Notes: a model not told the origin generated them from the sequence alone. A stretch of DNA of 64,000 nucleotides from Chloroflexia bacterium (GCA_030431755.1 JAUIIK010000001.1:42184-106183), one strand, 5' to 3'; positions 18,091-43,782 are shown, counted from the first letter of the stretch. Translations and numbers: made by a program.

Positions 18091-21000
18091 GTGCTGATTC
18101 GAATACTGACATTGTTCGCGCTGGTCGTGCCAATGTTCGCGGGTCTGGCCGTTGCGCCCGCCGCCAACGCGCAGGCCACGCCGGTCCGGTTCTTCGTCGA
18201 AGGTCCTGAGCGCGTCGACGTCGATAGCCCGATCGAGTTGCGCATCGGCGTGGACGGGGTGGAGAACCTGGCCGGATTCGAAGCTGTCGTGCTCTTTGAC
18301 ACCAACGCGGCGGTCTTCCGCGGGCATGAGCTGCGCGGCAGCGATCTCGCCCGCAACGGCCGGAGCGTGGCCCCGCTATCGGCCGTCGAACAGGACTACG
18401 GCATCGCCATTGGCGCGTACACCTGCTCGGCCAGCTCCTGTCTCAACGAACAGGTCGGCAACACGGAGTCCGGCAAGGACGGCCGGGTCAACCTCGGCTC
18501 GATCTCGCTGTTGACCGTGCTCGAAGGGCAGCTAGAGATCTCAATCGCGGCGATCAAGCTCGTGAACGCACGCGGCGAGGAGATCGGCCCGGCGCTGCCG
18601 GCCTTCAATTTGCGTATCAGCGTCGGCGAAAGCGGCGCGCGCGGGAGTCGCTTCGCCGCGCCAGCGCCGCCCTGGAAGCTCAAGCCGGATCCGGGCCTGG
18701 CGCGCAACTACGACATCGTCGCTGACAGCGTCGTCTCCTACGCGGACGCGGCTGAGGTCGCCGTGGCCTGGGTTGACCAGCGCGAACAGCGCAATCCCTG
18801 TCGCTCGCTCTGGGACGCGCGTATCGACGTCAACGGCGATGGCTGCGTCGATGTCGCCGATATCCAGCTCGTCGCCGCGAACTTCGGCAAAGCCACGAAT
18901 GACAGCGACGGCCCGCCGGACAATGGCCGCGATCAAACCGGCGCGGAGCTGGCACAGGGCGGCACGACATTCGTCGTCAACTCAACCGGCGATGAAGATG
19001 ACAACAACATCGGCAACGGCGTCTGCCAGACGCCGGCCGGCACCTGCACCTTGCGAGCGGCGATCCGCGAAGCCAACACCAGTCCCGGCCCAAACACGAT
19101 CGCCTTCAACATTCCCGGTGGCGGCGTCCAGCGCATCCAGGTGACCAAGCAGCTGCCGGCGCTTGGCGACCAGAGCGGCGGGACGACGATCGACGGCTAC
19201 ACACAACCGGGCGCGTCGGTCAATACGGCTGCGTTGGCCAGCAATGCCAACCTGCGCGTCGAGCTGCGCGGTGGCGGCGAAGACCAGTACGTCGCGATTA
19301 AGATCACGTCATCCAACAACGTCATCCGTGGTCTGTCCCTGTTCCGCTTCCGCAAGGCGATCTGGATCTTCGGTAGCGGCGCGTCGAACAATACTCTGAT
19401 CGGCAACTTCATCGGTACAGACGCTGCCGGTAGCTACGTGTCGCCGGTAATCCAGGGCGCCGGCCATGGCGTTCATATCGAGCAGGGCGCGCATGACAAC
19501 GTCATTGGCCGGCCGAATCTGGCCGACCGCAACGTCGTCTCCGGTAATGGCCGCCACGGCATCGGCATCTGGCACGCCCCGAGCAACGACAACGTCATCC
19601 AGAACAACATCGTCGGCCTGAGCCCGGCGGGTACCGCAGCCCGTCCCAACCGCAAGCACGGCATCGACATCAACTACGGCTCGGCCAACAATCTCATCGG
19701 CGGTGCGGGCGCGAACCAGCGCAACGTATCATCCGGCAACGACGACACCGGCGTCGAGATCTCGCACCTCGAATCGACGAGCGGCAATCAGGTCATCGGA
19801 AACTTCATCGGCTCCGACCTGACCGGCAACGGCGCGCCGGGCTACACGGCCAACCAGGGACGCGGCATCATGATGGAAGACGGCGTCCGCAACAACATCA
19901 TCGAAGGCAACGTCATCGTCAACAGCCAGCAAGCCGCCGGCATCGAGGTCCGCCACGACTACACCTCCGGCAACATCATCCGCGACAACCGTATCGGCAT
20001 CACGCTCAATGGCACAGCCGCGCCGAACCCAACCGGCATCGATGTCAACGGGAACAACACCCAGGTTGGGCCGGACAACACCATCGCCTTCAATCTCTTC
20101 GCCGGGATCAACCTCGGCACGGACACCGGCGACTTCAACACGATCACCCGTAACTCGATCTTCTCGAACGCCGGTCTCGGCATAAACATCGCTCCGGGCG
20201 GCGTCAACCCCAACGATCCGGGGGATGGCGACACCGGGCCGAATGAGGGGCTGAACTTCCCGGTGCTGAATCCGCCGACCACGTCGACGGCTACCGGCGC
20301 TGCCTGCGCCAACTGCGTCGTCGAGATCTTCGAGGCAGACAGCGCCGCCGGACAGCATGGCGAGGGCATGACCTTCGTTGCCAGCGCCAACGCCAACGGA
20401 TCGGGCGCGTTCTCGGTTGCGATCGGCGGACTCTCGCCGGGCACGGTTCTGACGGCAACGGCAACGGACCAGACCGGCAACACGTCGGAATTCGCCCAGA
20501 ACGTCGCCATCACCGGATCAAGCTCGCGGATTAAGGACATGACCTTCGAGAATGGCGCGGTCCAGCATCCAATCACTGGCGCTGACACCGACTTCGGGCC
20601 GATTTCAGCCGTCGCGCCTGGTTCTATCTCCGGCAACTTCTCAGCGGCCGTCGACACCAACACCTTCACCCGCGCCTACCTCCAGGAGGACTTCGCGGTC
20701 GCCGCCGACCTCTACGTCGCGTTCGAGTTCCGCATCGACGACCTGCCGGCAACGAACCTGCGCATATTCGAGATCTACAACCTGGGTTCGCTTGCAGGGA
20801 ACATCGGCCTGAGCTCTAACGGCGTGCTCACGCTGCGCTTTGGCTCAACCTTTATCGGTCAATCTGCCCCGTTGCAGGAAGGTCAGGTCTACCGCATCGG
20901 CATCCACCAGCAACGCGGAACCGGCGGCAACGCGGTGCTGGAAGCCTTTGTCGTACAGGGCGCCGGCGGCTTCGGCGCACCGTTTGCGTCAACGAGCTCA

Positions 21001-21108
21001 GGCAACTGGACGACGTTTGCGAACCGCATCCGGCTGGGAACGACCACCTCGACGATCTTTGAGGCAACGATTGACAACGTCTCGCTCGACACCGCCATGA
21101 TGCCTTGA
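18091..21108 (+). CDS. Secreted multidomain protein: signal peptide, cohesin-like domain, dockerin-like EF-hand repeat, long right-handed parallel beta-helix, C-terminal lectin/LamG-like domain
   Basis: Signal peptide ..AGLAVAPAANAQA. Cohesin-like segment (IELRIGVDGVENLAGFEAVVLFD). DVNGDGCVDVADIQLVAANFG (18823-18888). CTLRAAIREAN motif followed by many N/G-rich PbH1-type repeats. Confidence 0.8.
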   Translation: MLIRILTLFALVVPMFAGLAVAPAANAQATPVRFFVEGPERVDVDSPIELRIGVDGVENLAGFEAVVLFDTNAAVFRGHELRGSDLARNGRSVAPLSAVEQDYGIAIGAYTCSASSCLNEQVGNTESGKDGRVNLGSISLLTVLEGQLEISIAAIKLVNARGEEIGPALPAFNLRISVGESGARGSRFAAPAPPWKLKPDPGLARNYDIVADSVVSYADAAEVAVAWVDQREQRNPCRSLWDARIDVNGDGCVDVADIQLVAANFGKATNDSDGPPDNGRDQTGAELAQGGTTFVVNSTGDEDDNNIGNGVCQTPAGTCTLRAAIREANTSPGPNTIAFNIPGGGVQRIQVTKQLPALGDQSGGTTIDGYTQPGASVNTAALASNANLRVELRGGGEDQYVAIKITSSNNVIRGLSLFRFRKAIWIFGSGASNNTLIGNFIGTDAAGSYVSPVIQGAGHGVHIEQGAHDNVIGRPNLADRNVVSGNGRHGIGIWHAPSNDNVIQNNIVGLSPAGTAARPNRKHGIDINYGSANNLIGGAGANQRNVSSGNDDTGVEISHLESTSGNQVIGNFIGSDLTGNGAPGYTANQGRGIMMEDGVRNNIIEGNVIVNSQQAAGIEVRHDYTSGNIIRDNRIGITLNGTAAPNPTGIDVNGNNTQVGPDNTIAFNLFAGINLGTDTGDFNTITRNSIFSNAGLGINIAPGGVNPNDPGDGDTGPNEGLNFPVLNPPTTSTATGAACANCVVEIFEADSAAGQHGEGMTFVASANANGSGAFSVAIGGLSPGTVLTATATDQTGNTSEFAQNVAITGSSSRIKDMTFENGAVQHPITGADTDFGPISAVAPGSISGNFSAAVDTNTFTRAYLQEDFAVAADLYVAFEFRIDDLPATNLRIFEIYNLGSLAGNIGLSSNGVLTLRFGSTFIGQSAPLQEGQVYRIGIHQQRGTGGNAVLEAFVVQGAGGFGAPFASTSSGNWTTFANRIRLGTTTSTIFEATIDNVSLDTAMMP

Positions 21109-22118
21109 GCGCCGGGCAGTCCCAGACCGCGCCGACGCTCTACACGGTCGGCGGCAAACAGCGCCAGGCACGGACGTTGAGCGAGCGCGAGGTCGACTGG
21201 TACCGCTTCGGCCAGGGCTTGATCCTTGAGGTCGAGCCTGACACGGGGGATACACGCGAGGTGGTCTCCTACGTCTCACCGCCGGATGTCTGCGCCCCGG
21301 ATGACCCGGCTATTCTCTTCAAGGGCGCGGCGCTGTGCGGCGACGAGATGTACGTCTGCACGCCGACCGAGGTGCTCGTCTACGAACTACCCGGATTCGA
21401 GCTTCGCAGGTACATCTCGCTGCCGGCGTTCAACGATCTGCATCACGCGCGGCCAGACTCGCACGGCAACCTGCTCGTGGCAGTCACTGGTCTCGATCTC
21501 GTGTTGGCCATAGATCAGGCGAACTCGATCAGCGATTACTGGAGCGTTGCCGCCGGCCACAACGCGAGCCACCATATCGGCTCGTCGGTCGACTTCCGGC
21601 TGGTGGCCAGCACGAAACCGCACATGGCCCACCCCAACCAGCTCTTCTTGATCGACGACGAGCCCTGGGTGACGCGTTTCGAGCAGCGGGATGCGGTGAG
21701 CCTGCGATCTCCCGCGCGGCGCATCAACATCGGCTGCGAGCGCGTACACGATGGCTATGTCGACGGCGGCTGGGTCTACTTCACGACTGTCGACGGCCGC
21801 ATTGCCGTGGCGTCGACGACAACGCTGATCGTTGAAGACGTACTGGATCTCAACGAGATGTCCGGGACGTTGCTGGGCGATCGGCATCTCGGCTGGTGCC
21901 GGGGACTGTACATTGACGGCCCGCGCGCGTGGGTCGGCTTCTCGCGGCTGCGCCTGTCGCGGGTGCGCGCCAATCTCTCCTGGGTGCGTTGGGGCTTCAA
22001 ACCGTTCGCGCCGACCCGTATTGCCTGCTACGACCTCGAGCGCCGCTGCCTCGTCCACGAGGTCGACTTGCAGCGGCACGGCCTCGACGCCATCTTCAGC
22101 ATTCTGCCGGCCAGCTAG
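21105..22118 (+). CDS. Hypothetical protein (beta-rich, possibly propeller-like), coupled to the upstream secreted protein
   Basis: 337-aa ORF. The TTG start overlaps the upstream TGA (TTGA at 21105-21108). Composition is coding-like. No motif I can name with confidence. Confidence 0.55.
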   Translation: MSAGQSQTAPTLYTVGGKQRQARTLSEREVDWYRFGQGLILEVEPDTGDTREVVSYVSPPDVCAPDDPAILFKGAALCGDEMYVCTPTEVLVYELPGFELRRYISLPAFNDLHHARPDSHGNLLVAVTGLDLVLAIDQANSISDYWSVAAGHNASHHIGSSVDFRLVASTKPHMAHPNQLFLIDDEPWVTRFEQRDAVSLRSPARRINIGCERVHDGYVDGGWVYFTTVDGRIAVASTTTLIVEDVLDLNEMSGTLLGDRHLGWCRGLYIDGPRAWVGFSRLRLSRVRANLSWVRWGFKPFAPTRIACYDLERRCLVHEVDLQRHGLDAIFSILPAS

Positions 22119-22160: not shown

Positions 22161-22985
22161 CTAGAGGACGGCTGGGAGGACTACCAGCATCGAGATCGTC
22201 ATAAGGGCGTGAGCGCCGACCGGCCCCCAGAGCGATCCGGTCCAGTAGCGGCCGAAGCCAAACAGCAACCCGGCGACGAATGCAATCAGCACGGCAGCCG
22301 GCGAGCGACTACCGGTGTAGAGCACCGCAAAGAGCAGCCCGGACCAGACGACGCCGATCCAGCCAAGGGTCGAGCTGAGCGGCGACTGAAACATCCCGTG
22401 GATCAGCAGCTCCTCTACCAGCGCCGAGCAGACGAGCAGGACCAGGCCGAAGGCGACAATTTGGACGATGCTCGGGTTCTCGACGAGTGGCCGCGGCTCC
22501 ACCATGATGTAGCCAACGTATCCCAGCGCAGCCCCGGCCGGCAGGAGGGCCAGTTCCACCGGCGTGAATGAGCCGGTCAAACCTAGCTGCCGCAGATTGA
22601 TCGTGCCGGAGTAGATGAGCACCACCGCGGCCAGCAATCCCGTTGTTCCCGCGCCCACGTACCAGACCACAGGCGACGTCGACGCCATCGGCAATGCCAG
22701 GCTCGCAATGCGCACGATTGCAGTCGAAAGCAGCGCAAATGCGACCACCCGCCGCCCGCCGCCGGTGGCGGACAGCGCGACATGGCACGCCAGGCTGAAC
22801 GCGCCTACGGCATACATGCTCGCGCCGTAGAGCGGACTCACAAAGGTCGCTAGCACCTCGGCCACAATCGCGAACTGAATCGCCACCGCGACGTATGCGG
22901 TGAGCGACGCTCTGCTGTCCAGGCGACCAATGCCCAACCGTGGTTCAGGTCTTGATGCCGGCGTGGTTGAAAGCGGTGTGTTCAT
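22161..22985 (-). CDS. CPBP (CAAX/Abi) family intramembrane protease-like protein with variant catalytic motifs
   Basis: Polytopic. Motif 1 is EELLIHG (usual EExxxR), motif 2 is FAVLY (usual FxxxH), motif 3 is HALMT. ATG at 22985 forms an ATGA overlap with the upstream gene, so it is preferred over 23027. Confidence 0.6.
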   Translation of the reverse strand: MNTPLSTTPASRPEPRLGIGRLDSRASLTAYVAVAIQFAIVAEVLATFVSPLYGASMYAVGAFSLACHVALSATGGGRRVVAFALLSTAIVRIASLALPMASTSPVVWYVGAGTTGLLAAVVLIYSGTINLRQLGLTGSFTPVELALLPAGAALGYVGYIMVEPRPLVENPSIVQIVAFGLVLLVCSALVEELLIHGMFQSPLSSTLGWIGVVWSGLLFAVLYTGSRSPAAVLIAFVAGLLFGFGRYWTGSLWGPVGAHALMTISMLVVLPAVL

Positions 22986-23239
22986 AGCCAGTTGAGGATA
23001 GTCATGATGCGCACCGCGATAATGCATCCGGCAACAAAGGCAAGCGGCAGAATCGCAACATAGAGTCCGGTTGGTGGACTGGCTGGACCGTCAGCCGTGC
23101 GGTAGGCGCGCAGCGCTTCGTTCAACACCAGCAGCGCAAGCAGCAGCAGCACCGGGACGAGCGCGGTTTCAGTCGAGAGCACGGAGAGAGCCGAACCCTC
23201 TGCCGTCCGGTAGGACGTTTCGTTGATCGTGCCAGTCAA
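22982..23239 (-). CDS. Small two-TM membrane protein
   Basis: 85 aa with two hydrophobic helices. TTGA overlap upstream and ATGA overlap downstream. Confidence 0.45.
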   Translation of the reverse strand: MTGTINETSYRTAEGSALSVLSTETALVPVLLLLALLVLNEALRAYRTADGPASPPTGLYVAILPLAFVAGCIIAVRIMTILNWL

Positions 23240-24622: not shown

Positions 24623-25864
24623 GTGATAACGGCGCGCGGTCTCGGCAAGCAGTACCAACTTGGCGGACGCGACAACTACCGGGCGCTCCGCGATGTCCTG
24701 ACGGATTCGACACGCAAGCTCTTTTCCCGCAGCGCTGACCAGCATGATGTCAAGGACAATATCTGGGCGCTGCGAGAGGTGAGCTTCGACATTCGCCAGG
24801 GCGAGATCGTCGGGGTGATTGGTCACAATGGCGCGGGCAAGAGCACATTGCTCCGTATCCTCTCGCGCATCACCCACCCAACGACCGGAGAGTTCAGCTT
24901 TCGCGGCCGCATTGGCTCGCTGCTCGAGGTCGGGACCGGATTCCACCCGGAGCTGACCGGCGGCGAGAACATCTACCTGAGCGGCGCGATCCTCGGCATG
25001 TCGCGCGATGAGATCCGTGCCCGCTTCGACGAGATCGTCGCCTTCGCCGAAATCGAGCCGTTCGTGGACACACCGGTGAAACGCTTCTCAACCGGCATGT
25101 ACATGCGGCTGGCCTTCGCGGTCGCCGCCCATCTCGATACGGATATCCTGCTCGTTGATGAGGTTCTGGCGGTGGGCGATGCGCGCTTCCAGCAGCGCTG
25201 CATCGGCGCGCTTGAGAATGCGGCCTTCGAGCATGGGCGCACGGTGCTCCTGGTCAGCCATAACATGGCAACGATTGAGAAGCTCTGCGGACGCGCGCTG
25301 CTGATCGATCACGGTCGGCTCGCTGTCGACGGCAGTCCAACGGAGGCGCTCGAAGCCTATCTCGCAGACGTCCCGACGGCGAGCAAACCCGGTGAGTGGA
25401 TCGACCTTGGCGACGCGCGCAGATCTGGGAGCGGCGAGGCGCGCTTCATCGCGCTGCGCTACTCCGCCGGCAGCGTTGAGCAGCAGCGGCGTGTGCAGCC
25501 CGGCGCGTCAATCGCCATCGATCTCCGCATCAACACCAAGCAGGCCATGACAGTCAACCACCTCGCTGTATCGATCACCGATCGGCGGAGCACGAAGCTG
25601 ATCCATGCCGATGTCGCCCAATCCGGTGATTTCATCAGGCTCGACGAAGGCAACAACGTCTTTCGCGTGTCGCTGCCGTCACTGGCGCTCAATCCGGGTC
25701 GCTATGCGCTTGAGCTGCGGCTTGCGCGGCGGCGCAACAGCGTCGTCGACGCGCTCGAGCCAGCGATCGAATTCGACGTATTCAGCCCTGATGGCGCTGA
25801 TGCCGTGGACCCCACCGAGCACGGCTACCTCTGGACAGCAGCTACCTTCGACCGCATCACGTAG
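24623..25864 (+). CDS. wzt: Polysaccharide ABC exporter ATP-binding protein with C-terminal glycan-binding beta-sandwich (Wzt-like)
   Basis: Walker A GHNGAGKST, signature FSTGMYMRLAFA, Walker B ILLVDEVLAVGD. A ~170-aa C-terminal extension (..RRSGSGEARFIALRYS..) resembles the Wzt C-terminal domain. GTG 24623 gives the usual short N-terminus (VITARGLGKQY). Confidence 0.85.
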   Translation: MITARGLGKQYQLGGRDNYRALRDVLTDSTRKLFSRSADQHDVKDNIWALREVSFDIRQGEIVGVIGHNGAGKSTLLRILSRITHPTTGEFSFRGRIGSLLEVGTGFHPELTGGENIYLSGAILGMSRDEIRARFDEIVAFAEIEPFVDTPVKRFSTGMYMRLAFAVAAHLDTDILLVDEVLAVGDARFQQRCIGALENAAFEHGRTVLLVSHNMATIEKLCGRALLIDHGRLAVDGSPTEALEAYLADVPTASKPGEWIDLGDARRSGSGEARFIALRYSAGSVEQQRRVQPGASIAIDLRINTKQAMTVNHLAVSITDRRSTKLIHADVAQSGDFIRLDEGNNVFRVSLPSLALNPGRYALELRLARRRNSVVDALEPAIEFDVFSPDGADAVDPTEHGYLWTAATFDRIT

Positions 25865-25893
25865 CGCTTACACCCACGACCAAGTGGCCAGGC

Positions 25894-27531
25894 TCACGCT
25901 TGCACAAGCGGCAGCAGCGCCGCGAGCAGTCCGGCGAACTCATTGTGATGGCTCCTACGCTGCCGCTCGCCGAGATGCCTCTCGCGGCGCTCGCGCTCGA
26001 CGCCGTGCTCCAGCAGCATGACGATCCAAAACGGGATGAGATAGTCCCGACTGATCTCGAATGCTGCCCGGTAGCGGTCGATCTCTTCGCTGGCGGCCTG
26101 CATCGCGTCGGTATGCTCCGCAGCAGGGCCGAGAAGGGCAAGGAGCCATGCTGCACTATCGTCACGCCCATCGACAGCGCAGCCCCAGTGCAACGTGAAG
26201 TAGAGCAGGTCACAGATCCCTGGCCCGGGAGGCGCGTCCGGCGACGCGTTCTCCCAATCGATCACGCTCAGATGAGCTCCGTCGCGCAGCACGTTCCACG
26301 GTGTGAAATCGCGATGGCGCAACGTTACGCTGAGCGGGTCGTCCACGAGGCGCTCAACACGCTGTCGCGTCGCGTCGACCGTCAGGAGCGCATCTGGGTA
26401 ATGCCTGGCCCACATGGAGCGAACTGCGGCCGGCATGTCGAGCGACCCGGCGAACCAAGCGCGCGCGCTGGCCCGCTCGCTCGGTTCGAGGTGACGATGC
26501 GCACGGCGCAGCCAATGCGCCGCCAGCCGCAGGTCGAGCTGTTTCTCGCCAAAGGCCCGGTTTCGTCTCCAGGCCAGGTCAATGACTCGAGTGCCTGGGG
26601 TCCACGATTCTGTCACGGTGAGCGTTGTCCCGTCCCGCCGTTCCGCAAGCGGCATCGGGACCGCCACCGCCAACTCCTCCGGAAGCATCCTATGAAGATG
26701 CGCTAGTGTCGACTGCTCGCGCGCGATCTGTTCATCGAAGTTCGGGTGGCGTGCTGTCTTCGCCACACGCATGGGCTGCGAGCTCTCGTCCGAAAACCAG
26801 AGCGTCACGACGCGGCTGCCGTCGTCGACACCGCTCGTCATCTGAATTCGGGCCGTTTCGTTCAACTGAGATTCAACGGCACAACGATCAATCCGGCTCA
26901 GGGCTCCTGGTGGTGCCAGGGTGGAGAGGAACTCCACCCCTACGGCGCTCCGGGTGCGGCGACGTTCGGTGCGGCCTTGTACAGCAGGTCCTGCCGTGGG
27001 CGGGAGCTTCCAGGCTACTGTCCCGATCGCGGCTCCCCGTCGCATCGCCAACCGGCTAGCAATGCGTGGGGACCGCGAAAGCATCCACCTGGCAACCTGC
27101 TGAACTGCACTAGCACCGGAGACTAAACTACGCGCGTACCAGGCCATGGTCCGGTCGTCGACCTGAACATAGCGACGAGCGTTCGCCGGGCCGAGGAGCA
27201 GATAGTGCGTGATTGAGACATCCCGTATGTCGGTCTGCTCTATCGGTCCCTCGAAATAGAGCGCCTGGCCCGGCGTCAACAGCGCGCAGGCATCCCGGAA
27301 CGACAACGGCGACCCCGGCAACACGGCCAATGCTTGATACTCGTTCGAGCGACTGGAGATCGGGGCGACATGCCGGGCAATACCGCAATCCACGAGCAGA
27401 TCACCTAGCCCTGCCGGACCGCCCGAAAGGGCGAGGAGGTCGAATTCCGGACCGACCTGCGGACCAAACAGGAAGCGCCAATCAGCGTGCCGTAGCGTCG
27501 ATTCGCCCGTCACCGGACGAGCCCGTGACAT
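25894..27531 (-). CDS. Two-domain protein: N-terminal Rossmann-like (possibly degenerate methyltransferase) region plus C-terminal APH/protein-kinase-like phosphotransferase; WbdD-like chain-terminator candidate
   Basis: Kinase-fold catalytic loop HRDFTPWNVLRDGAHLSVIDWENA..ICDLLYF. N-terminal G-rich segment LLALSGGPAGLG..LLTPGQALYFEG. Last gene of the glycan operon, convergent with wzt. Confidence 0.65.
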   Translation of the reverse strand: MSRARPVTGESTLRHADWRFLFGPQVGPEFDLLALSGGPAGLGDLLVDCGIARHVAPISSRSNEYQALAVLPGSPLSFRDACALLTPGQALYFEGPIEQTDIRDVSITHYLLLGPANARRYVQVDDRTMAWYARSLVSGASAVQQVARWMLSRSPRIASRLAMRRGAAIGTVAWKLPPTAGPAVQGRTERRRTRSAVGVEFLSTLAPPGALSRIDRCAVESQLNETARIQMTSGVDDGSRVVTLWFSDESSQPMRVAKTARHPNFDEQIAREQSTLAHLHRMLPEELAVAVPMPLAERRDGTTLTVTESWTPGTRVIDLAWRRNRAFGEKQLDLRLAAHWLRRAHRHLEPSERASARAWFAGSLDMPAAVRSMWARHYPDALLTVDATRQRVERLVDDPLSVTLRHRDFTPWNVLRDGAHLSVIDWENASPDAPPGPGICDLLYFTLHWGCAVDGRDDSAAWLLALLGPAAEHTDAMQAASEEIDRYRAAFEISRDYLIPFWIVMLLEHGVERERRERHLGERQRRSHHNEFAGLLAALLPLVQA

Positions 27532-28376
27532 GCGCGCGCCAATGCCCCGATACGCCGCGCTCCGCCAACAAGCCGAAGAACGACCTCGAGTTGGAGCAGT
27601 CGCAACTTGCCGTAGTGCTTCCGATAGTAGCGCCGCGCTCCCGTCTGCCAGCGGCGCCAGACGCCGTCAGGGGCATCGGGACTACTCCCACCTCCGACAT
27701 GCGCGACCGTCGCAAACGGCGCGAAATGCACCTCGCGGCCAAACGCCCAGCACCGCGCGCAGTAGTCAGTCTCCTCGTAGTAAAGCGGAAACTGCTCATC
27801 GAAGCCCCCGAGCCGGTCAAATGTCTCCCGCTCGATGAGCAACGCAGCGCCGAGCAGCCAGCGCACTCTCCGTGGACGGCGATGATCCCACCAGCGCACA
27901 GAGAGACGCCCCGCGCCCGGCAGACGAGCAAGCAGCGGGCTCAGCCCGCTTGAATCGATCAACACGTTCAATGGTGTCGGCTCCGGATAGCACGATGGCT
28001 GGAGCGTGCCATCCGGATTGACGATGCGCGGCCCGATGACGGCTGCTTCCGGATGCCGCTTCGCGTATGCCGCAAGCTGGCTGACCGTGCCAGGCTCGGA
28101 CACGGTGTCGGGATTGAGCAGCAGCGCATACGGGGTGGTGGTCTCGCGAATACCCTGGTTGGCCGCCGGTCCGTAGCCGCGGTTGCGCCCGTTCAAGATA
28201 GCCCGTACCTGAGGGAACTCCGTGCCTAGCATCTCGATCGTGCCGTCAGTAGATGCATTGTCGACGACGACCAATTGAGCGAGGCCCTGACCTCCGAGCG
28301 CGGCAAGGCAGCGCCGAAGGTGATCGCGGGAGTTGTAGCTGACGATGCAAGCTGCGACCGGGTACAGCGCGCTCAT
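27510..28376 (-). CDS. Glycosyltransferase family 2
   Basis: CIVSYNSRDHLRRCLAAL..VVVDNASTDGT and a DxD-type region (LLNPDT). 288 aa. ATGA overlap with the upstream gene. Confidence 0.85.
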   Translation of the reverse strand: MSALYPVAACIVSYNSRDHLRRCLAALGGQGLAQLVVVDNASTDGTIEMLGTEFPQVRAILNGRNRGYGPAANQGIRETTTPYALLLNPDTVSEPGTVSQLAAYAKRHPEAAVIGPRIVNPDGTLQPSCYPEPTPLNVLIDSSGLSPLLARLPGAGRLSVRWWDHRRPRRVRWLLGAALLIERETFDRLGGFDEQFPLYYEETDYCARCWAFGREVHFAPFATVAHVGGGSSPDAPDGVWRRWQTGARRYYRKHYGKLRLLQLEVVLRLVGGARRIGALARACHGLVR

Positions 28377-30253
28377 TCGCTAGAGTTGAAGGCGGTGCTA
28401 TCGAGTGGTTCGCTCAGCACGAGAATTGTCGCGTCATCGGTATCGAGCACAGCGCGGAACTCGCCCGACTCGAGCAGTTCATCAACCAGATGATCCAGCG
28501 CGCCGGTCTCCAGCCCGTAGAAGATATCAACCGCCGCGCTCGTTGCCCGCGTGACGACGAAATAGACCTCATTCCGGTTCGTCTCGCGGACCTCGCGCAT
28601 GTAGGTAGCGATCTGGTCGGGGTCGCCCTCGCGGATCATACGCGCCGGGATGACGCGCTCGCTAAGATCCTCGTAGCGCTCGGCCTTCCAGGGCACGCTC
28701 GGCCCGCCGGCCACCAACACCGCGCCCTCGGGCGCTTCGGCATAGAGATACGCAATCGCAGCCACCTCCTCGGCGGTGTAGTAGTCCATGCGCTCGTTTC
28801 CGAAGCGCGCGAAGAGAAATCCGCCGAACAAGACGAGACTGAGCGCTCCAGCAACGAGCGAGGTCCGCAGCTGAGTCTGCCCCGGACGCGCGTAGATCGC
28901 GAGCGCGGCCAGCAACGCCAGGCCCGGCAACGCGAAGAAGAAGGCACGCAGCACGCCCTCGCCGCCGTAGGCCTGCAAGCCCAGGATGACGACCGGCGCG
29001 CCCGCCAGCAGGATTGGGACGATATCCCAGCGACCGGAGCAAACCCGCATCACGATGCCGATCCCGGCCAGGATGATGTAGGCGACGGCCATCACGAGCC
29101 GCATCTGGACGACGAAGACATGCTCCCGGCTGCCGCTGACCCGGCCGGCGACGCCGGCATTCACGTTGCCGCTCAACTGGCCGACGCCACTAGCAACACC
29201 TTCGAGGTGCCCCAGCAAGAACGGCACAGTCGCGAAGGCGATCCAGCTTCCGACGACCAGCCCGGCATAGAGCGCGATGCCGGTTGGCTGAATCCGCCGG
29301 AAGATCACCAGTGCGCCGAGCATGATGACCAACGCCACCGGCGTGAGCTGGTGGCTCGGGGCCATCGCGGCAATGATCAGCAGCGTTGCCAGCATGAGCC
29401 CGACACGCTGCCACGGTCCGGCCAGGCCGGTGTCGCCGTCGATCTCACTCGCCGCTGCGAGCTGCCGCGAAACCACGGGAAAGCGCTCCAGATGAGCGGC
29501 CGTCCAGGCCCGGAATCTGCTCGGCTCGGCGCTCAGGGGCATCGGGAACCAGTGCAGAAGGATGGCCAGGACCGACAGATAGAGCAAATAGTCCAACGCT
29601 TGCGGCGCGAAGTAATCCTGGCCAATCCAGTTGCCGAGGTAGAAGAGCCAGATCCCGAACCAGCGCGCCCGCTCGTCGCGGACGATGGACTTGAAGATGA
29701 CATACAGCGGCGCAAGATAGAGCGCGTTGAAGACGAGCGAGGCCCAGCCGGCCAACGCTGACGGGTCATCGACGCCGGTCAGTTCGGTGAGCAGCGCCGC
29801 GAGGATAAATGCGCCCGGCCAGCTGAAGTAGGCATCGAGTCGTGTGTCGAGCTGTTCATTGCGGATGATGTACTCGGTAATCCCGATGTGTTTCCAGGTC
29901 GCTGCAAAGCGCGGCGCTTCCTCAACCGCCGAGGTCGTCGCAAAGAGAATCACGATCATCGCCGCAATATGTAGAAAGACCGCAACTTGAGAGACCTTTG
30001 CGCCGCGGAGCGACGATACAAAGCCACAGGTGAGCGTCGCAAACGCCGCGTAGTACAGCACCGGCAGCACCGACACCAGGCCGAGGTCGTTCATCCCCTC
30101 GACCGAGATGCGGTCGAGCGAGAGCGCCCAGAGGACCAGCGCCAGCGGCGGAAACGCAAGCTCTACCGGAGGCAGGCGCAACCAGCCGCTGCGGCCACGC
30201 AACGCACTGGAGAATCTGCGTTCGCCTGGTTCTAGTCGAACGGATTCAGCCAT
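28373..30253 (-). CDS. Large polytopic membrane protein with C-terminal soluble domain (polymerase or GT-C-like candidate)
   Basis: 626 aa, about 14 hydrophobic segments, then a ~130-aa hydrophilic tail (YYTAEEVAAIAYLYAEAPEGAVLVAGG..). Embedded in the glycan operon. No named family recognised by eye. Confidence 0.65.
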   Translation of the reverse strand: MAESVRLEPGERRFSSALRGRSGWLRLPPVELAFPPLALVLWALSLDRISVEGMNDLGLVSVLPVLYYAAFATLTCGFVSSLRGAKVSQVAVFLHIAAMIVILFATTSAVEEAPRFAATWKHIGITEYIIRNEQLDTRLDAYFSWPGAFILAALLTELTGVDDPSALAGWASLVFNALYLAPLYVIFKSIVRDERARWFGIWLFYLGNWIGQDYFAPQALDYLLYLSVLAILLHWFPMPLSAEPSRFRAWTAAHLERFPVVSRQLAAASEIDGDTGLAGPWQRVGLMLATLLIIAAMAPSHQLTPVALVIMLGALVIFRRIQPTGIALYAGLVVGSWIAFATVPFLLGHLEGVASGVGQLSGNVNAGVAGRVSGSREHVFVVQMRLVMAVAYIILAGIGIVMRVCSGRWDIVPILLAGAPVVILGLQAYGGEGVLRAFFFALPGLALLAALAIYARPGQTQLRTSLVAGALSLVLFGGFLFARFGNERMDYYTAEEVAAIAYLYAEAPEGAVLVAGGPSVPWKAERYEDLSERVIPARMIREGDPDQIATYMREVRETNRNEVYFVVTRATSAAVDIFYGLETGALDHLVDELLESGEFRAVLDTDDATILVLSEPLDSTAFNSSE

Positions 30254-30363
30254 CGTCCCTATCCGTTGAACGCTCCGCCACCTGCGCCACCAGCCAACGC
30301 AGCGAGGCCAGCATCATTCGATGACAATACGCACGTTCTGTAATAGTAATACAGTGCATACGA

Positions 30364-31383
30364 TCATCGCGCCGCAAAGGTCCGTTGCGCCAGCCGCTCC
30401 ACCAGCGGTTTCGGAGCTGCACCGGCGGCGGCGAACCAGGCCGCGAACCCGGCCCTCCGCCAGACCGGTGCGTCGTCACGCCGCTTCGCCGCCCATATGC
30501 CGGATGAAACGAGTGACGCGCGCGAGTCATGCCGGCGTGGATGCCCTTCCGGATCAAGCCGGAGCGACACCAGCCGGGCTGCCAGATCCGTCACCGAGAG
30601 CTGCCCACGGCCATCGCCGGCGTCCGGATCGAGACCCAGCTCGCAGGCCCGCCGGCGAACATGCGCGTCCCCGGCTTGATTGCGTTCGATGAGCCCACGC
30701 AGCGCAGCAAGATCAAGCGACGTCCGGTGGTGGGCATTCCCACCATGCACACGGTAGCGCCCGAGAACCTGATCGAGCGAGACGACGTCGCCGTAGAGCG
30801 GGGTGAGATTCAGCAGGTAGAGATCAGCGAGTACCGCGCCATACTCGGCCTCCGGGATCGGCAGTATCCGCTCGAGCACGCGCCGCCGATAGGCGTTGCC
30901 ACTCATCGGCGGACAGCGGACGTCGTGTGGATAACGGAGGATCTCCGAGCGGAGGTCGCCGTCAGGCATACGCCTGTGCTGAGGCGGGGTCGTGCCCGGC
31001 AGCGACACGCCGTTCCCATCGACATGGCCAAGCCGAAACTGCACCCGCGCCGCGTCCGGGCGCTCGGCAAACGCCTGCGCGACGAGCCCGGCCGCGTGCG
31101 GCTCCAGCCAGTCGTCGGCATCGAGAAAGTGCACGACATCGCCACGGGCCAGCCTGAAGCCAGTGTTGACGGCCGCGGCCTGGCCCGCGTTCGAGCGCTG
31201 GCGCGCGGCTTGAATCGAGCTGCCGTATGACTCGATCGTGGTCCAAGATTCGTCAGTCGATGCATCATCAACGACAACGACCTCAACATCGACGCCCTGC
31301 TGCCCGAGCGCGCTCTCGATAGCATCCGGTAGATAGCGGGCGTAGTTGTAGTTCGAGATGATGATGCTGACTGCCGCCTTCAT
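30364..31383 (-). CDS. Glycosyltransferase family 2
   Basis: MKAAVSIIISNYNYARYLPDAIESALGQ..VEVVVVDDASTDES, DADD motif. ATG 31383 forms an ATGA overlap with the flippase stop. The 35-aa Arg-rich extension to 31488 is rejected. Confidence 0.85.
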   Translation of the reverse strand: MKAAVSIIISNYNYARYLPDAIESALGQQGVDVEVVVVDDASTDESWTTIESYGSSIQAARQRSNAGQAAAVNTGFRLARGDVVHFLDADDWLEPHAAGLVAQAFAERPDAARVQFRLGHVDGNGVSLPGTTPPQHRRMPDGDLRSEILRYPHDVRCPPMSGNAYRRRVLERILPIPEAEYGAVLADLYLLNLTPLYGDVVSLDQVLGRYRVHGGNAHHRTSLDLAALRGLIERNQAGDAHVRRRACELGLDPDAGDGRGQLSVTDLAARLVSLRLDPEGHPRRHDSRASLVSSGIWAAKRRDDAPVWRRAGFAAWFAAAGAAPKPLVERLAQRTFAAR

Positions 31384-32798
31384 GGCAGCCGGCTCGAAGG
31401 CTCCGGATGCAATGCCGGCGAACTCGCGGCCCGCGTTCGCGTGAGCATGGGACTGAGCCGAAGCGCCGCGACCACCGCGCCGACGCATTGGGCGATCAGC
31501 CAGAATGCAGCGACGCCGACAAGCCCAAACTCAAGCGCGCCAAACGCCGCGCCGGCCAGGGAAAGGAAGCTGATGCCGCCGGCCACGATTGCAGGTTCCG
31601 TCAGATCGCGGGTGGCGCGCCGGACGGCAACATAGGTCTCGATGAAGGTGCGTGGAAGAACACCCAGCGCCACGAGCCGCAACGCAGCCGCGCCCTCACG
31701 CGCATAGTCTGCGCCCATGATCGAAAGCAGGAGATCGGCGCTAACGATGAGCACAAGCGCGACAGGCACGCCGATTGCAAGCGCAGTCGTTACGCTCTTC
31801 CGCACGCTCACGTCGACGCTCCGGCGGTTCGCGGCGGCCTGGGAGAAGAGCGCCTGGGCACTCGCGCTTGGCACGACCATCACCAGGACGCCAAACATCC
31901 ACACCGCATACCAGTAGGCCGCCGCGCTCGCCCCGAGCAGCTCCGCGACCAGGATCGGCAGTATCCAGATCTGCGCGAGCAGCGCCAGCGATAGCCGGTA
32001 GTTCGGCAGCCCGATTGAGAGCATCACCTTCATCGTCCTGCGCCGGAACTTCGGTAGCAACGTGAGCTTCGGCAGATGCCATGTCAATTGCACGATGCCC
32101 AGAACGTTCGAGAGCAGCAACGCGACAGACCAGGCGAGCATGATCGCCGCGACGCCGTCCGTCGACGACGCCAGGGCGGCGGCCGCGAGAACGGCGACGC
32201 TAACGACACCCTGCACTGCGCTGCGCACGACGATGCGCTCGGCGCGCCGTACGGCGAGCAACACGGCGTCGATTGCGACCGATAGTGTCCAGAGCAGGCT
32301 CAACAAGACGAACCCGGCGGCATAGCCGGGCTCTCGCGCGAGCGCCGCCATGTCGTCCAGCACAACTGAAGCGGTCAGCAGGAATGCAGTGTTAACAACC
32401 AGCGCGGCAAGCAGCACCGTCGAGAAGAAGGTGCGCATGAGGCCGGACGAATGCCGGCGGACACCAGGCAGCATCGTGATGACCGCAGCGTTGAGCCCAA
32501 GCAGGGCGAGCTGCGCCGAGAGCCGCATCGCCGACGTTGCGCCAGCGCCGAGCCCAACCGCGTCGGCTTCAAATAGCCGCGCGGCAAGCAACCAGAATGG
32601 GTAACCGAGCGCTGCCGAGAGCATGACGTTCAGCATGAGTGCGAGTGCATTGGCCCGCATCGGAAGTGCCCGGTAGTCGATGTCTCCACGGGCACGCCAG
32701 ATCAATCCACGCCAGCCGTCGTCGAGGAGCTCGCTCAGCTCATCCAGCGCGCCCTGGACGAAACCCGTCGCGGCGCGGCTGCGGCGCCGCAGGTTCAT
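31380..32798 (-). CDS. MOP-superfamily oligosaccharide flippase-like protein (Wzx-like)
   Basis: 472 aa, about 12-14 TM segments, typical polysaccharide-biosynthesis-protein topology. ATGA overlaps on both sides. Confidence 0.7.
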   Translation of the reverse strand: MNLRRRSRAATGFVQGALDELSELLDDGWRGLIWRARGDIDYRALPMRANALALMLNVMLSAALGYPFWLLAARLFEADAVGLGAGATSAMRLSAQLALLGLNAAVITMLPGVRRHSSGLMRTFFSTVLLAALVVNTAFLLTASVVLDDMAALAREPGYAAGFVLLSLLWTLSVAIDAVLLAVRRAERIVVRSAVQGVVSVAVLAAAALASSTDGVAAIMLAWSVALLLSNVLGIVQLTWHLPKLTLLPKFRRRTMKVMLSIGLPNYRLSLALLAQIWILPILVAELLGASAAAYWYAVWMFGVLVMVVPSASAQALFSQAAANRRSVDVSVRKSVTTALAIGVPVALVLIVSADLLLSIMGADYAREGAAALRLVALGVLPRTFIETYVAVRRATRDLTEPAIVAGGISFLSLAGAAFGALEFGLVGVAAFWLIAQCVGAVVAALRLSPMLTRTRAASSPALHPEPSSRLP

Positions 32799-34024
32799 GC
32801 TGCCCGTCCTTGCGCCAGGAGGTCTTGGTAGACGGTTTCAGTTGCAAGCACTGCTCGCTCTTCGCTGAACATCGCCGCCGTCCGGCGCGCGCCGGCAGCA
32901 AGCCGCGCCCGCAAGGCCTCGTCACCGGCAATATGAGCGAGCGCAGCCGCCAGCGCAACCGGATCGTCGGGCGGCGCCAGTAGGCCGTTATCGCCATCGT
33001 TGACGACATCGGGAATTCCGCCCACGCGCGAGGCGACAACCGGCTTGCCGGCGTTCATCGCTTCAAGCAGCACCAGGCCGAACGGCTCAGCCCAGACCGA
33101 CGGGACGACCCCGGCCAGCGCCCGTTGCCAGGCGAGCTGGACGGCGTCGTTGGGCCATTCGCCAAGATTGACGGCACGGGCAGGCAGATCCGCCAGTCCA
33201 GCGTCCCAGGTCTTGCCAATCAACACCAGCGGCGGACGAGACTCATCGAGTCTAGCATAGGCGTCGAGGAGTACGCCGATGCCCTTGTCGCGCCTGAAAT
33301 CGCCGACAAACAGGAAGTACGGCCTTTCTGGCAAGCGCTCGTAGTAGTCGGAGTAGTCATGGTTTCCAATGGCAGGTTGCGTGATGAAGTTGGGAATGAC
33401 CGACACGTTGCGCCGATCTGCGATCTGGTTGCCCTGCACCGTAGCCGAGCTCACCGCAATGAAGTGATCGACCAGCTTCCGCTCGGCTAGCGTGCCGGCG
33501 CGGTGCAGGGCCAGCGCGACCGGCCCTTTGGCCGTGCCATAGTGCTCCACCGAGCACGCAAGGCAGCGCAGCGCGTCGGGCCCGGCACATGGCGCATCGT
33601 GCCTCATCAAGGTCTTCTTCGCACATGCCGCCGTGTAGTAGTGGAGTGACATAACAAGCTTCGCGGGGAACAGCGGCTTTAACGGCAGGTACGACCGCGC
33701 CAGCCATTCGTGGCCGTGGACGACATCGGGCTTGAACCGCCGCACAATCCGCGCAAGCGTCTGAGTGGCGAGCGGATCAGGGGCTGGCGGTGCCCAGCGC
33801 CGTTGTGTATGCGCGTGCAACCCGTTCGCGCGCTGCGCCAACCCCTGCAGACGCACCACCCGTACTGGACCATCAAGCTCGTGCGCCGGGCGCTCCGGGT
33901 GGGCAAGCGTGGCGACGACGACCTGGTGTCCTCGCCGGGCGAGCGCGTGACTGAGGCCGCGCACATGCTGTTCGACGCCGCCAACATAGGGATGATAGAA
34001 GTCCGCGATCATTAGGACACGCAT
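32795..34024 (-). CDS. Glycosyltransferase family 4 (GT-B) with a four-Cys insertion
   Basis: MRVLMIADFYHPYVGGVEQH.. N-terminus and a C-terminal EPFGLVLLEAMNAGKPVVASRVGGIPDVV (EX7E-type) motif. Cys cluster C-x11-C-x7-C-x2-C at about 33554-33625. Confidence 0.85.
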   Translation of the reverse strand: MRVLMIADFYHPYVGGVEQHVRGLSHALARRGHQVVVATLAHPERPAHELDGPVRVVRLQGLAQRANGLHAHTQRRWAPPAPDPLATQTLARIVRRFKPDVVHGHEWLARSYLPLKPLFPAKLVMSLHYYTAACAKKTLMRHDAPCAGPDALRCLACSVEHYGTAKGPVALALHRAGTLAERKLVDHFIAVSSATVQGNQIADRRNVSVIPNFITQPAIGNHDYSDYYERLPERPYFLFVGDFRRDKGIGVLLDAYARLDESRPPLVLIGKTWDAGLADLPARAVNLGEWPNDAVQLAWQRALAGVVPSVWAEPFGLVLLEAMNAGKPVVASRVGGIPDVVNDGDNGLLAPPDDPVALAAALAHIAGDEALRARLAAGARRTAAMFSEERAVLATETVYQDLLAQGRAA

Positions 34025-35196
34025 TGACGCTCCGCCGCGATCTCGTAGTAGAGCTGCTCGAGCTCGGCCGTGCAGCCTTCCCATGTTGGCAGTTCGAACT
34101 CCGCCGTCATCTCCGGCGCGTCGATGCGCTCGATGATCGCCGCGGCGACAGCTTCGGGCGAGCTACCCGGCGGAATCGTGCGCACCGGCGGGTAGCGCCC
34201 AAACTGGGCCAGGCCGGAGGTGTCCGCCACGAGCACCTTGGAGCCACAGGTGAGGGCCTCCAACACGGCGATCGGATAGGCTTCGTAGTCGCTCAGCGCC
34301 GTGACGACGTCGGCCGACCCAAGCAGCCGCGCCATGCCTTCGCGGTCGTCGTGTGGAACTCGCGCGATCTGTACGCGGCCGCCAACGCCAAGCTCGTGAG
34401 CAAGCTCCCGCAGCTTGTGCCCGTATGGTCCCGCCCCGGCAATCCTCAGCTGGACGTCCGGGTAGACCTTCGCTACGTGGGGCAGGGCCTCGATAACTCG
34501 CTGGTGTCCCTTGTAGCGTTCGAGCCTCCCGGGCGACACGATTAGTGTGTGGTCAACGGCTGCCTGCCGAGCGGAGTCGGGGATGCGGGCAACCGAGTCC
34601 GCCCCATTCAGAATGACTGTGAAGTCGTCGCGCGGGATATCGAGCTCGCGGCTAAAGTGATCGGCCTCGAATTCCGAGACGCCAACGAGCCGGTCGGCCC
34701 GGGCAATCAGGGGCCGCAGCATCCGCCACTGCACGGGCCGCGCCAACACCCGCAGCCGCGACGAGTGGCCGCCGCTGTGAAAGGTAACCACATAGGGGAT
34801 GTCATGCTGTCTGGCTGCGAGCATCGCCGCCGGCGCAACGAACGTGTGATAGCCCTGACAGTGCACGACATCCCAGTCCCGGGCAGTCACAAAGTCGTAG
34901 ATTTGCGGCGCGATGTAGAGATCGAGATTCGATAGGAGCGTTGGCACACGGATCACCCGCACGCCATCGATGATCTCGCGCGAGGGCACGTCATCGCCTG
35001 GATCGGTCGTCAGGACGGCGACCTCGTGGCCGCGCGCGGCGAGCCTCCGGCCAACCTCGTAGACGTGCGTCTCTGTGCCGCCGACAAGCGGCTGGAAACG
35101 CGCCGAGACCATTGCGATGCGCAATGGACGCTGCCGGCATTGCGCCTCCGGCTGTGCCTGCTCCCGTGGAGCAAGGTCAAGAACTGAGGTAGCCAT
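34012..35196 (-). CDS. Glycosyltransferase family 4 (GT-B)
   Basis: LRIAMVSARFQPLVGGTETHVYEV.. and EAYPIAVLEALTCGSKVLVADTSGL motifs. 394 aa. Confidence 0.85.
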   Translation of the reverse strand: MATSVLDLAPREQAQPEAQCRQRPLRIAMVSARFQPLVGGTETHVYEVGRRLAARGHEVAVLTTDPGDDVPSREIIDGVRVIRVPTLLSNLDLYIAPQIYDFVTARDWDVVHCQGYHTFVAPAAMLAARQHDIPYVVTFHSGGHSSRLRVLARPVQWRMLRPLIARADRLVGVSEFEADHFSRELDIPRDDFTVILNGADSVARIPDSARQAAVDHTLIVSPGRLERYKGHQRVIEALPHVAKVYPDVQLRIAGAGPYGHKLRELAHELGVGGRVQIARVPHDDREGMARLLGSADVVTALSDYEAYPIAVLEALTCGSKVLVADTSGLAQFGRYPPVRTIPPGSSPEAVAAAIIERIDAPEMTAEFELPTWEGCTAELEQLYYEIAAERQCVS

Positions 35197-37046: not shown

Positions 37047-37063
37047 GTCGTCCTCGCCCTCGC

Positions 37064-39968
<2,905 letters not shown>

Positions 39969-39969
<1 letters not shown>

Positions 39970-40829: not shown

Positions 40830-40961
40830 GCGCGCTTCCTTTCCCCTTGACCGTGGCAGCGAGCAATGGGGCTCCCACATACCAACTTGCTCGCCATGCA
40901 GACCGATCAGTGCGAGGCAAGCGTTGAACCCAGACCCCTGTCCTTGCCCCAGATGGTCAGT

Positions 40962-43244: not shown

Positions 43245-43782
43245 GATGGATACTCCCTTGCAGTTTCGCGATCCCCATACATCACCATGCTCCCATCGGG
43301 GAGCTTGCGGTGGCAGGCCCCGATAGGTTGTCTCAGGCCCCGACAAGCGGCCTAGGACCACCCAGACCAACGGTCTAGGAGGGCTCGCAAACTACGGGGT
43401 CGACGCTGCTTCGGGATCGGGAATAGGCCGGCAGCCTGTGCCGCGGAGTGGCTCTCGTGCGGGCATGGAAAGAGCCGCGTACACGGTCTCTGTTGACAAC
43501 CGAGGCGGTGCTAGTTTGCCCGGGAATATCTCATATACACGCCGAAAAGCAGCATCAACGCCCCAACGACTCCGACTGCGAAACCTGGCATCCGGCATCC
43601 CGCTACGCCGCCGCCGATGCGGAGCGCAACGAACCGTCAAACCCGGTCAGCACGTGATTACCGCCTACCGACCGTCGAGCGGTAGGCTAGCCACTACCAT
43701 ACACTAACCCAATGCGATAAAACTAATCATTAGTATGTTAATAATTACTAGCAACCAGCGCTCGTATCCATTTCATAGCCAC

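Follow-up and report, generated by a model that had tools for sequence, protein, structure and literature searches.

The window analysed here is a stretch of 64,000 nucleotides (nt) of a Chloroflexia bacterium (GCA_030431755.1 JAUIIK010000001.1:42184-106183), read on one strand, and the region under study (24,623-27,531) holds two genes that meet tail to tail. One is wzt, which encodes the ATPase of an ATP-binding cassette (ABC) exporter for glycans; the other is an open reading frame (ORF) of 545 amino acids (aa) with a kinase domain, which a preliminary description of the window had likened to WbdD, the chain terminator of Escherichia coli O9a. The convergent layout was observed as had been described, with the two stop codons 29 nt apart and the 545-aa ORF standing last in a glycan operon that runs on the minus strand from 40880 to 25894. 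A consensus scan of the gap between both genes (25865-25893) found no terminator hairpin. On the other side, wzt starts 13 nt after the end of wzm, the gene for the ABC-2 permease. Besides its Pfam match (Table 1), Wzm gave NCBIfam matches below the cut-off to the galactan Wzm and KpsM models (E 1e-13 and 1e-11), and its homologues (E 1e-75 to 1e-139) adjoin wzt in related loci.

The full 545-aa frame is genuine, as homologues with 23-47% identity cover 81-99% of it; the NCBI annotation (P0001) takes in the C-terminal 315 aa only, and the conserved N-terminal domain was missed by the gene call. A full-length AlphaFold2 model, built on 18 sequences, reached a predicted local distance difference test score (pLDDT) of 84 and a predicted template-modelling score (pTM) of 0.83. 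It presents an N-terminal domain of alternating beta strands and alpha helices (aa 12-175), a disordered linker (aa 179-222, pLDDT <50) and a kinase domain, mostly above 90 pLDDT, that runs to the C-terminus. This order of a Rossmann-like domain followed by a kinase of the APH type is the one that the preliminary description had given. Pfam found APH (PF01636) alone on the protein, at aa 245-446 and with 36.7 bits against a cut-off of 23.2, and no Pkinase match; NCBIfam returned no match for the 545-aa protein, and no hydrophobic segment was found in it by hydropathy.

The motifs LLALSGGPAGLG (aa 32-43), HRDFTPWNVL (aa 406-415) and IDWENA (aa 424-429) were confirmed in the protein, the last two forming the catalytic loop as first described. 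The window kinase carries the whole catalytic set intact, K258, E272, H406, D408, N413 and D425, whose codons lie on the minus strand at 26758-26760 (K258), 26716-26718 (E272), 26308-26316 (H406/D408), 26293-26295 (N413) and 26257-26259 (D425). Among 146 family members, K258 and D425 are conserved in 100%, E272 in 99%, H406 in 97% and N413 in 92%, and D408 is the majority residue (75-90%). Judged by these residues, the 545-aa protein should be an active kinase. In the Foldseek comparison with PDB, the best matches of the kinase were APH(2'')-Ia, APH(3') and the Mycobacterium tuberculosis maltose kinase Mak (E 3e-7 to 4e-6, probability 1.00), the last giving the longest structural alignment to the window protein (407 columns, E 8e-7); no WbdD chain was among the top 50 PDB hits of the 545-aa model. 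These enzymes share PF01636 with the window protein, at 13-17% identity, and act on sugar-type hydroxyls. They differ from it in being stand-alone resistance or metabolic enzymes, without an N-terminal Rossmann domain and outside loci with glycosyltransferase (GT), wzm and wzt genes. Since they phosphorylate hydroxyls of sugars or aminocyclitols, we counted them in favor of a terminator that would phosphorylate a sugar.

The N-terminal domain (N-domain), modelled alone, reached a pLDDT of 77. Its top 50 Foldseek hits were all class I S-adenosylmethionine (SAM) methyltransferases, but weak ones (E 6e-4 to 2.5e-2, TM-score 0.22-0.39, about 10% identity). No Pfam methyltransferase model matched any of 16 family N-domains at E<=10, and none of NCBIfam matched the window protein, whereas WbdD, taken as a control, matched five methyltransferase models (36-49 bits), APH (37.7 bits) and Pkinase too. 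In WbdD, motif I (LDLGCAQG, with D60) and motif II (GID, with D82) are canonical; the equivalent family positions, after beta1 and beta2, hold L/A and S, with no acidic residue, and G37 is the sole residue of the glycine loop conserved in the family. Together with G37, the N-domain conserves the ADWRFL helix (W18, R19), Y92, E94 and W131. This helix has a pLDDT of 89 in the full-length model and of 48 in the isolated domain, which suggests that it packs on the kinase and that the two domains may form one unit. The N-domain is best interpreted as a non-catalytic module that derives from a methyltransferase. Of the earlier proposal of a Rossmann-like domain with a SAM-binding fold, then, a methyltransferase-like fold remains, itself a weak one, and the SAM-binding acidic residues and the Pfam match are missing. 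With those residues absent family-wide and no methyltransferase model matched, the methyl-phosphate cap that had been suggested along with it is unlikely to be made by the 545-aa protein.

The ADWRFL N-domain and the APH kinase define a family, recognized in this analysis, with a two-domain architecture of ~540 aa. A word-index homologue search gave 18 relatives, and an exhaustive profile search far more, namely 7,802 representatives at E<=1e-3 and 1,028 (50%-identity clusters) at E<=1e-30, nearly all full length. The hidden Markov models of the family recover the window ORF with E 9e-29 (N-domain) and E 4e-79 (kinase). GTDB genome loci with the ADWRFL motif (n=40) come from Chloroflexota, Gemmatimonadota, Acidobacteriota, Solirubrobacterales, Coriobacteriia and metagenome-assembled genomes of Bacillota. 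Glycosyltransferase genes of the GT2 or GT4 families are present in nearly all family loci longer than ~5 kb, so that the family, rather than clustering with antibiotic or choline kinases outside glycan loci, sits in GT-rich surroundings. Some members are fused to a GT2, at the N-terminal side in P0027, P0033 and P0133 and at the C-terminal side in P0088 and P0112, and others to a GT4 (P0132, P0149). In P0027, with the order GT2, N-domain and kinase, the GT2 shares 43% identity, along 264 aa, with the GT2 encoded immediately before the window kinase (27510-28376), the 3' end of whose gene overlaps the kinase start by 22 nt. Homologues of this window GT2 (E<1e-50) accompany the kinase in 10 loci, and in L001, L010 and L012 they adjoin it on the upstream side (55-76 nt between stop-to-stop ORFs). 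The GT2-kinase fusion and the recurrent adjacency make both proteins a conserved pair, and the GT fusions may be compared with terminator-polymerase fusions such as Klebsiella pneumoniae O7 ORF6 (PMC11231755).

Regarding the exporter, Pfam placed ABC_tran at aa 50-181 of Wzt and Wzt_C (PF14524) at aa 265-388, with 44.7 bits against a gathering cut-off of 30.4. The ATPase, whose partner is an ABC-2 permease, is of the Wzt/TagH type, and its top PDB matches (E 2e-59 to 1e-45) belong to these two proteins. The closest solved relative is the full-length Aquifex aeolicus Wzt (8dku/7k2t; E 2e-59, aligned through aa 369), and A. aeolicus WzmWzt (7k2t, 8dku, 6o14, 8dky) is the nearest solved system over both the ATPase domain and the carbohydrate-binding domain (CBD). 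A single-sequence PDB search with the isolated window C-domain gave only noise, and profile A3, made from 14 C-domains of kinase-linked Wzt, matched the isolated Aquifex CBD structures 8dky/6o14 with E 5e-6. By these sequence profiles, the beta-rich C-terminal extension reported before, of ~158 aa, is of the Wzt type. Two motifs stand out in its alignments (A3, A4), R-x-G-x-G-x-A-R (RRSGSGEAR in the window) and LxPGxY. Compared with the Aquifex CBD, the window CBD is highly divergent in sequence, and the kinase-linked subgroup has the R-x-G-x-G-x-A-R motif as an invariant feature of its own, which would suggest a site suited to an anionic ligand. The systems also differ in the host, which for the window is an uncultured member of Chloroflexota whose Fmt protein has its best named hits in Thermomicrobiales and Chloroflexia (57-61% identity). 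The exported glycan is, accordingly, probably not an O-antigen of lipopolysaccharide (LPS), and "O-antigen" is probably the wrong name for it.

The association between the kinase and this type of Wzt was examined in both directions. Starting from the kinase, a Wzt was found within 10 kb in 16/45 family loci, and all 16 of these proteins have at least 157 aa after the ATPase domain. Eleven of the 16 extensions are detectably similar to the window CBD; the other five, from Solirubrobacterales, form a second group that was aligned through the LxPGxY core. The tail-to-tail placement of kinase gene and wzt recurs with a spacing of 133 nt in L001, of 20 and 28 nt in the Gemmatimonadales loci L040 and L043, and of 9-16 nt in L048 and L049. 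For the reverse test, the protein database was searched with a profile of the CBD only, and seven hits on long contigs (26-39% identity) were looked up. The kinase family was present within 6 kb in six of these seven CBD-selected loci (L046, L047, L048, L049, L050 and L053): wzt faces an intact, convergent kinase gene in L048 and L049, and its 3' end is overlapped by a frameshifted kinase copy in L047. The sole negative was L051, a heavily frameshifted assembly, where no kinase was found. These results support a linkage of the kinase to CBD-type Wzt across phyla.

The window operon also encodes a bifunctional ATP sulfurylase/adenosine 5'-phosphosulfate (APS) kinase, that is, a 3'-phosphoadenosine 5'-phosphosulfate (PAPS) synthase, and two sulfotransferases. 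This block (35177-38896) is kept in L001, L006, L011 and L019, and only in these do such genes accompany the kinase. As the kinase-CBD association persists without sulfotransferases, it would not depend on sulfation, and phosphate is favored over sulfate as the common ligand. A sulfate cap, which had been named among the possible ones, thus fails to explain the linkage in many loci; two sulfotransferases are nevertheless encoded at this locus, and here in particular the CBD may read a sulfate cap. Regarding methyl groups, separate Methyltransf_11/23 and polysaccharide deacetylase genes recur in L046, L047, L048, L049 and L053, all on ENA contigs of the ERZ250395xx series; a methyltransferase of this kind is missing from the window locus. 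Should the organisms of L046-L049 and L053 have a methyl-phosphate cap, a stand-alone enzyme would provide its methyl group.

The comparison with WbdD was made with the protein from the O9 cluster of E. coli HS (L052:27967-30093, 708 aa), encoded directly downstream of wzt. Searches with the window protein and its family, by phmmer or profile hmmsearch, found no WbdD chain in PDB at E<=10. In hhalign, the family profile A1 aligned with E. coli HS WbdD over only 26 catalytic-loop columns (HRDFTPWNV...IDWE in the family, HDDVRPWNV...IDFG in WbdD) with 3.4% probability, and the N-domain profile found nothing in the WbdD methyltransferase domain (0.2% probability). With no PDB sequence hit and an alignment restricted to the catalytic loop, the 545-aa protein was rejected as a relative of WbdD. 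The likeness to WbdD of E. coli O9a and K. pneumoniae O3 (4AZS series; PMC3482155) lies in the order of a Rossmann/methyltransferase-type fold (residues 1-210 in WbdD) and then a kinase of the eukaryotic-like kinase (ELK) fold (211-459), in Pfam APH scores of ~37 bits for both kinases, in the catalytic loop H-x-D-x-x-P-W-N-V ... I-D, and in genes immediately adjacent to a wzt whose product has a Wzt_C domain. In contrast, the window protein is shorter and without the ~250-aa C-terminal coiled-coil and membrane-anchoring region of WbdD, its N-domain shows neither SAM motifs nor a methyltransferase model match, and its gene is convergent with wzt, while E. coli wbdD is co-directional. In addition, its kinase resembles APH enzymes, whereas the nearest folds of WbdD were reported to be Src-like tyrosine kinases (PMC3482155). 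Of four testable features that define WbdD, the 545-aa protein lacks three, and has the ELK-fold kinase with intact catalytic residues. What is left of the WbdD-style protein first described is, in consequence, the domain order and the kinase superfamily, and what falls away is homology, the SAM motifs and the coiled coil.

Another parallel is the O7 ORF6 terminator of K. pneumoniae, here compared with the window protein by its published description and not by sequence (PMC11231755). The ORF6 kinase is unrelated in sequence to WbdD and has as its closest solved structure AmiN, an amicoumacin kinase of the APH family; it is joined in one protein with GT2 polymerase modules, as some members of the ADWRFL family are with a GT2, and works with a Wzt that bears a carbohydrate-binding module (CBM). 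ORF6 differs in that its SAM methyltransferase is active, that it has a further CBM-like domain and that a coiled coil separates its terminator from its GT modules; the window protein lacks all three. As the O7 case shows, terminator kinases need not resemble WbdD. The 545-aa protein plausibly works like a stripped-down WbdD, without a ruler or a working methyltransferase. In the characterized systems, terminated O-polysaccharides are exported only once the CBM of Wzt recognizes the cap, and the transporters of uncapped polymers have no CBM (PMC11231755).

Putting these elements together, we propose that the 545-aa protein and its partner GT2 act as a terminator kinase that places a phosphate on the chain end, to be read by the CBD of Wzt, a reading to which we give an even chance of being right. 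The locus would be an ABC-transporter-dependent surface-glycan pathway of Chloroflexota, with a probably sulfated product, in which cytoplasmic GT2 and GT4 enzymes would build the polymer on a lipid carrier. Acting with the GT2 encoded just upstream, the APH-type kinase domain would transfer a phosphate from ATP to a sugar hydroxyl located at the non-reducing end or close to it; this would end elongation and create an anionic cap. The capped end would be recognized by the C-terminal CBD of Wzt, and Wzm/Wzt would export finished chains only. The N-domain, packed against the kinase, would most likely bind the acceptor or provide a docking site instead of transferring methyl groups, the cap would be a plain phosphate and not a methyl-phosphate, and chain length, without a coiled-coil ruler, would be set by the balance between terminator and polymerase activities. 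What we infer here is which substrate is phosphorylated, that the phosphate is terminal and that the CBD recognizes it. The domain identities, the intact catalytic residues, the missing SAM motifs and coiled coil, the CBD-Wzt linkage and the GT2 fusion are observations.

Several points weigh against this proposal. The phosphorylation could be internal, as with WaaP, instead of terminal. A C-terminal coiled coil, for which the preliminary description had suggested to look, was not found in the AlphaFold2 model (no dedicated coiled-coil predictor was applied), where the chain ends at aa 545 and the longest helix has 25 residues; every characterized terminator has a coiled coil (PMC11231755). The window N-domain departs from the family consensus at three of its most-conserved positions (D66Q, G106S and P123Q) and has a deletion of ~20 aa after beta4. 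No Wzt lies nearby in 14/25 loci with full 10-kb flanks, among them L006, L011 and L019, the Chloroflexia/Thermomicrobiales loci most similar in sulfation genes. The counts of 16/45 and 6/7 are raw frequencies, and as L047-L049 come from a single lineage, the second falls to ~4/5 when independent lineages are counted. Finally, P0043 is fused to a Wzx-like Polysacc_synt_3 flippase domain, and the family may hence not be limited to ABC-dependent, cap-gated export.

Part of this evidence speaks for a kinase that decorates the glycan, in which case it would phosphorylate internal residues, or a lipid-linked primer or adaptor, as WaaP does with the heptose of the LPS core, and the Wzt CBD would read another feature, such as a sulfate cap, a sugar that the partner GT2 adds at the terminus, or simply the repeat unit. 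The 14 GT-rich loci with full flanks and no Wzt within 10 kb, the flippase fusion of P0043 and the missing coiled coil are all in line with such a role, and the two sulfotransferases and the PAPS synthase could supply a different anionic cap. It is less easily reconciled with the presence of the kinase in six of seven loci that had been selected by the CBD, with a tail-to-tail abutment to wzt that recurs across phyla, and with the CBD-size extension of all Wzt near the family; moreover, the kinase is found together with the same subgroup of CBDs where sulfotransferase genes are lacking. We consider decoration unlikely on balance. The APH family also includes anomeric sugar kinases and choline kinases, and the 545-aa protein might belong among small-molecule kinases that supply precursors, forming an anomeric sugar-1-phosphate (as NahK, AmgK and Mak) or phosphocholine/phosphoethanolamine (as LicA), which, once activated, would be built into the glycan. 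That the maltose kinase of M. tuberculosis is among the best structural matches, with the longest alignment, agrees with this option. Nonetheless, a nucleotidyl- or cytidylyltransferase partner was not found in the operon, nor consistently in related loci, a fusion to GT2 or GT4 and a tight pairing with CBD-type Wzt are not expected of a soluble precursor kinase, and the conserved extra N-domain would be left without explanation; we hold a precursor kinase to be improbable.

A further option would be a true bifunctional enzyme in the manner of WbdD, with an unusual yet active methyltransferase in the N-domain and a methyl-phosphate cap. A methyltransferase-like fold of ~178 aa followed by a kinase, structural hits that are all class I SAM methyltransferases, and APH scores and catalytic loops like those of WbdD could be expected from such an enzyme. 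The 16 family N-domains, on the contrary, match none of the methyltransferase models of which WbdD matches five, the positions of D60 and D82 are hydrophobic and Ser family-wide, with only G37 kept of the glycine loop, and both the hhalign probability and the TM-scores of the N-domain are low; furthermore, several related loci have separate Methyltransf_11/23 genes, and the window locus none. This makes an active methyltransferase highly improbable. The least probable account, in our estimation, is that of a regulatory protein kinase or pseudo-enzyme scaffold that controls or organizes a complex of GTs and transporter and leaves the glycan unmodified. The ELK fold is common to protein kinases, WbdD itself matches Pkinase too, the N-domain looks non-catalytic and the tight domain packing of the model would fit a scaffold, but the conserved catalytic residues are not those of a pseudokinase, the best structural matches are small-molecule kinases and not protein kinases, and the window protein matches in Pfam APH alone.

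The features of the locus are collected in Table 1. In order of transcription, the glycan operon encodes GT2, GT2, the bifunctional ATP sulfurylase/APS kinase, two sulfotransferases, GT4 and GT4, followed by a 472-aa polytopic protein without Pfam match, GT2, a 626-aa polytopic protein likewise without Pfam match, GT2 and the kinase. In L001, whose kinase is 41% identical to that of the window, synteny extends over the whole block from the sulfotransferases through wzm. From these gene contents, the glycan of the window is probably sulfated and exported through Wzm/Wzt; in the literature we found no paper on sulfotransferase and Wzt export systems of this type. The 626-aa and 472-aa membrane proteins matched neither Pfam nor NCBIfam and are kept in L001, L006, L011 and L019. 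Candidate roles for the two are those of a ligase or GT-C-like enzyme and of a flippase-like protein, and with them a second step of membrane translocation or transfer may exist beside the ABC exporter.

Table 1. Features of the glycan export locus, with positions counted from the first nucleotide of the window (TM, transmembrane; AF2, AlphaFold2)
Feature	Position	Strand	Basis
wzm, ABC-2 permease of glycan exporter, 296 aa	23719-24609	+	PF01061 ABC2_membrane, 68.4 bits
wzt, 413 aa, GTG start	24623-25864	+	Product identical to NCBI gene call
wzt, nucleotide-binding domain, aa 1-255	24623-25387	+	PF00005, 80.1 bits; best in PDB, Aquifex Wzt 8dku
wzt, C-terminal CBD, aa 256-413 and stop codon	25388-25864	+	PF14524 Wzt_C
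Gap between convergent stop codons of wzt and kinase gene, 29 nt	25865-25893	.	Read from sequence
545-aa kinase protein, whole ORF, last gene of glycan operon	25894-27531	-	APH PF01636
Kinase domain, APH/ELK fold, aa 225-545 and stop codon	25894-26859	-	PF01636, 36.7 bits
Low-confidence linker, aa 179-224, partly an insertion specific to the window protein	26860-26997	-	pLDDT, alignment
N-terminal Rossmann-like pseudo-methyltransferase domain, aa 1-178, with ADWRFL motif and G-rich loop SGGPAGLG	26998-27531	-	AF2, Foldseek
GT2 glycosyltransferase, 288 aa, partner of kinase	27510-28376	-	PF00535, 79.5 bits
Rest of glycan operon	28373-40880	-	Pfam; TM segments by hydropathy
626-aa polytopic membrane protein, ~11 TM segments and soluble C-terminal domain	28373-30253	-	Hydropathy
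472-aa polytopic membrane protein, ~12 TM segments	31380-32798	-	Hydropathy
Sulfotransferase 2	35177-36175	-	Pfam
Sulfotransferase 1	36159-37046	-	Pfam
Bifunctional ATP sulfurylase/APS kinase (PAPS synthase)	37064-38896	-	Pfam

The glycan locus is flanked by genes for two secreted right-handed beta-helix proteins. One, of 1005 aa and with a Big_6 domain (18091-21108, plus strand), is kept with the locus in L001, and the other, of 733 aa, chondroitinase-B-like and with DUF5123 (41169-43370, minus strand), is kept in L006, L011 and L019; possible functions for both are those of a glycan lyase, a remodelling enzyme or a carrier protein. Between the first of them and wzm lie the genes for a 337-aa protein without family match (21105-22118, plus strand) and for an Rce1-like CPBP intramembrane protease (22161-23027, minus strand), both syntenic in L001. 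Upstream of the glycan locus, two DUF2298 membrane proteins of 766 and 1487 aa are encoded on the minus strand (5087-11847), and the larger also has a PMT_2 GT-C domain. A second cluster on the minus strand (52842-60714) contains two APH-family ORFs (52842-53927 and 53894-55273), a fused ABC exporter with ABC_membrane and ABC_tran (55191-57146), a GT4 (57010-58536) and a GT28-like protein (59422-60714), and may be a glycolipid or natural-product locus. Its two APH-family ORFs (52842-55273) were tried as paralogues of the 545-aa family and rejected, being only distant relatives.

Beyond the window, the family might constitute a large unannotated class of terminators, of about 1,000 clusters, in which a pseudo-methyltransferase, an APH kinase and a dedicated GT2 work without a ruler, and whose phosphate cap is read by the R-x-G-x-G-x-A-R subfamily of CBDs, in Chloroflexota, Gemmatimonadota, Acidobacteriota, Actinomycetota and Bacillota. 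This extension is tentative, and we place it somewhat below an even chance. If our reading is wrong, the protein is no more than an unassigned sugar kinase in a polysaccharide locus. If it is true, a function would be provided for a family of ~1,000 clusters whose N-domain is covered by neither Pfam nor NCBIfam, the kinase and the CBD subgroup would serve as a pair of genomic markers for capped glycans in uncultured Chloroflexota and Gemmatimonadota, and the family would be a source of regiospecific sugar kinases for glycoengineering. The checkpoint that reads the cap before export is known almost wholly from O-antigens of Enterobacteriaceae, where every terminator has a coiled-coil ruler. The proposal, if true, would extend this cap-and-export checkpoint, so far established in proteobacterial LPS, to the surface glycans of largely uncultured phyla, and the logic of the checkpoint would be older and more modular than the hardware known to carry it out.

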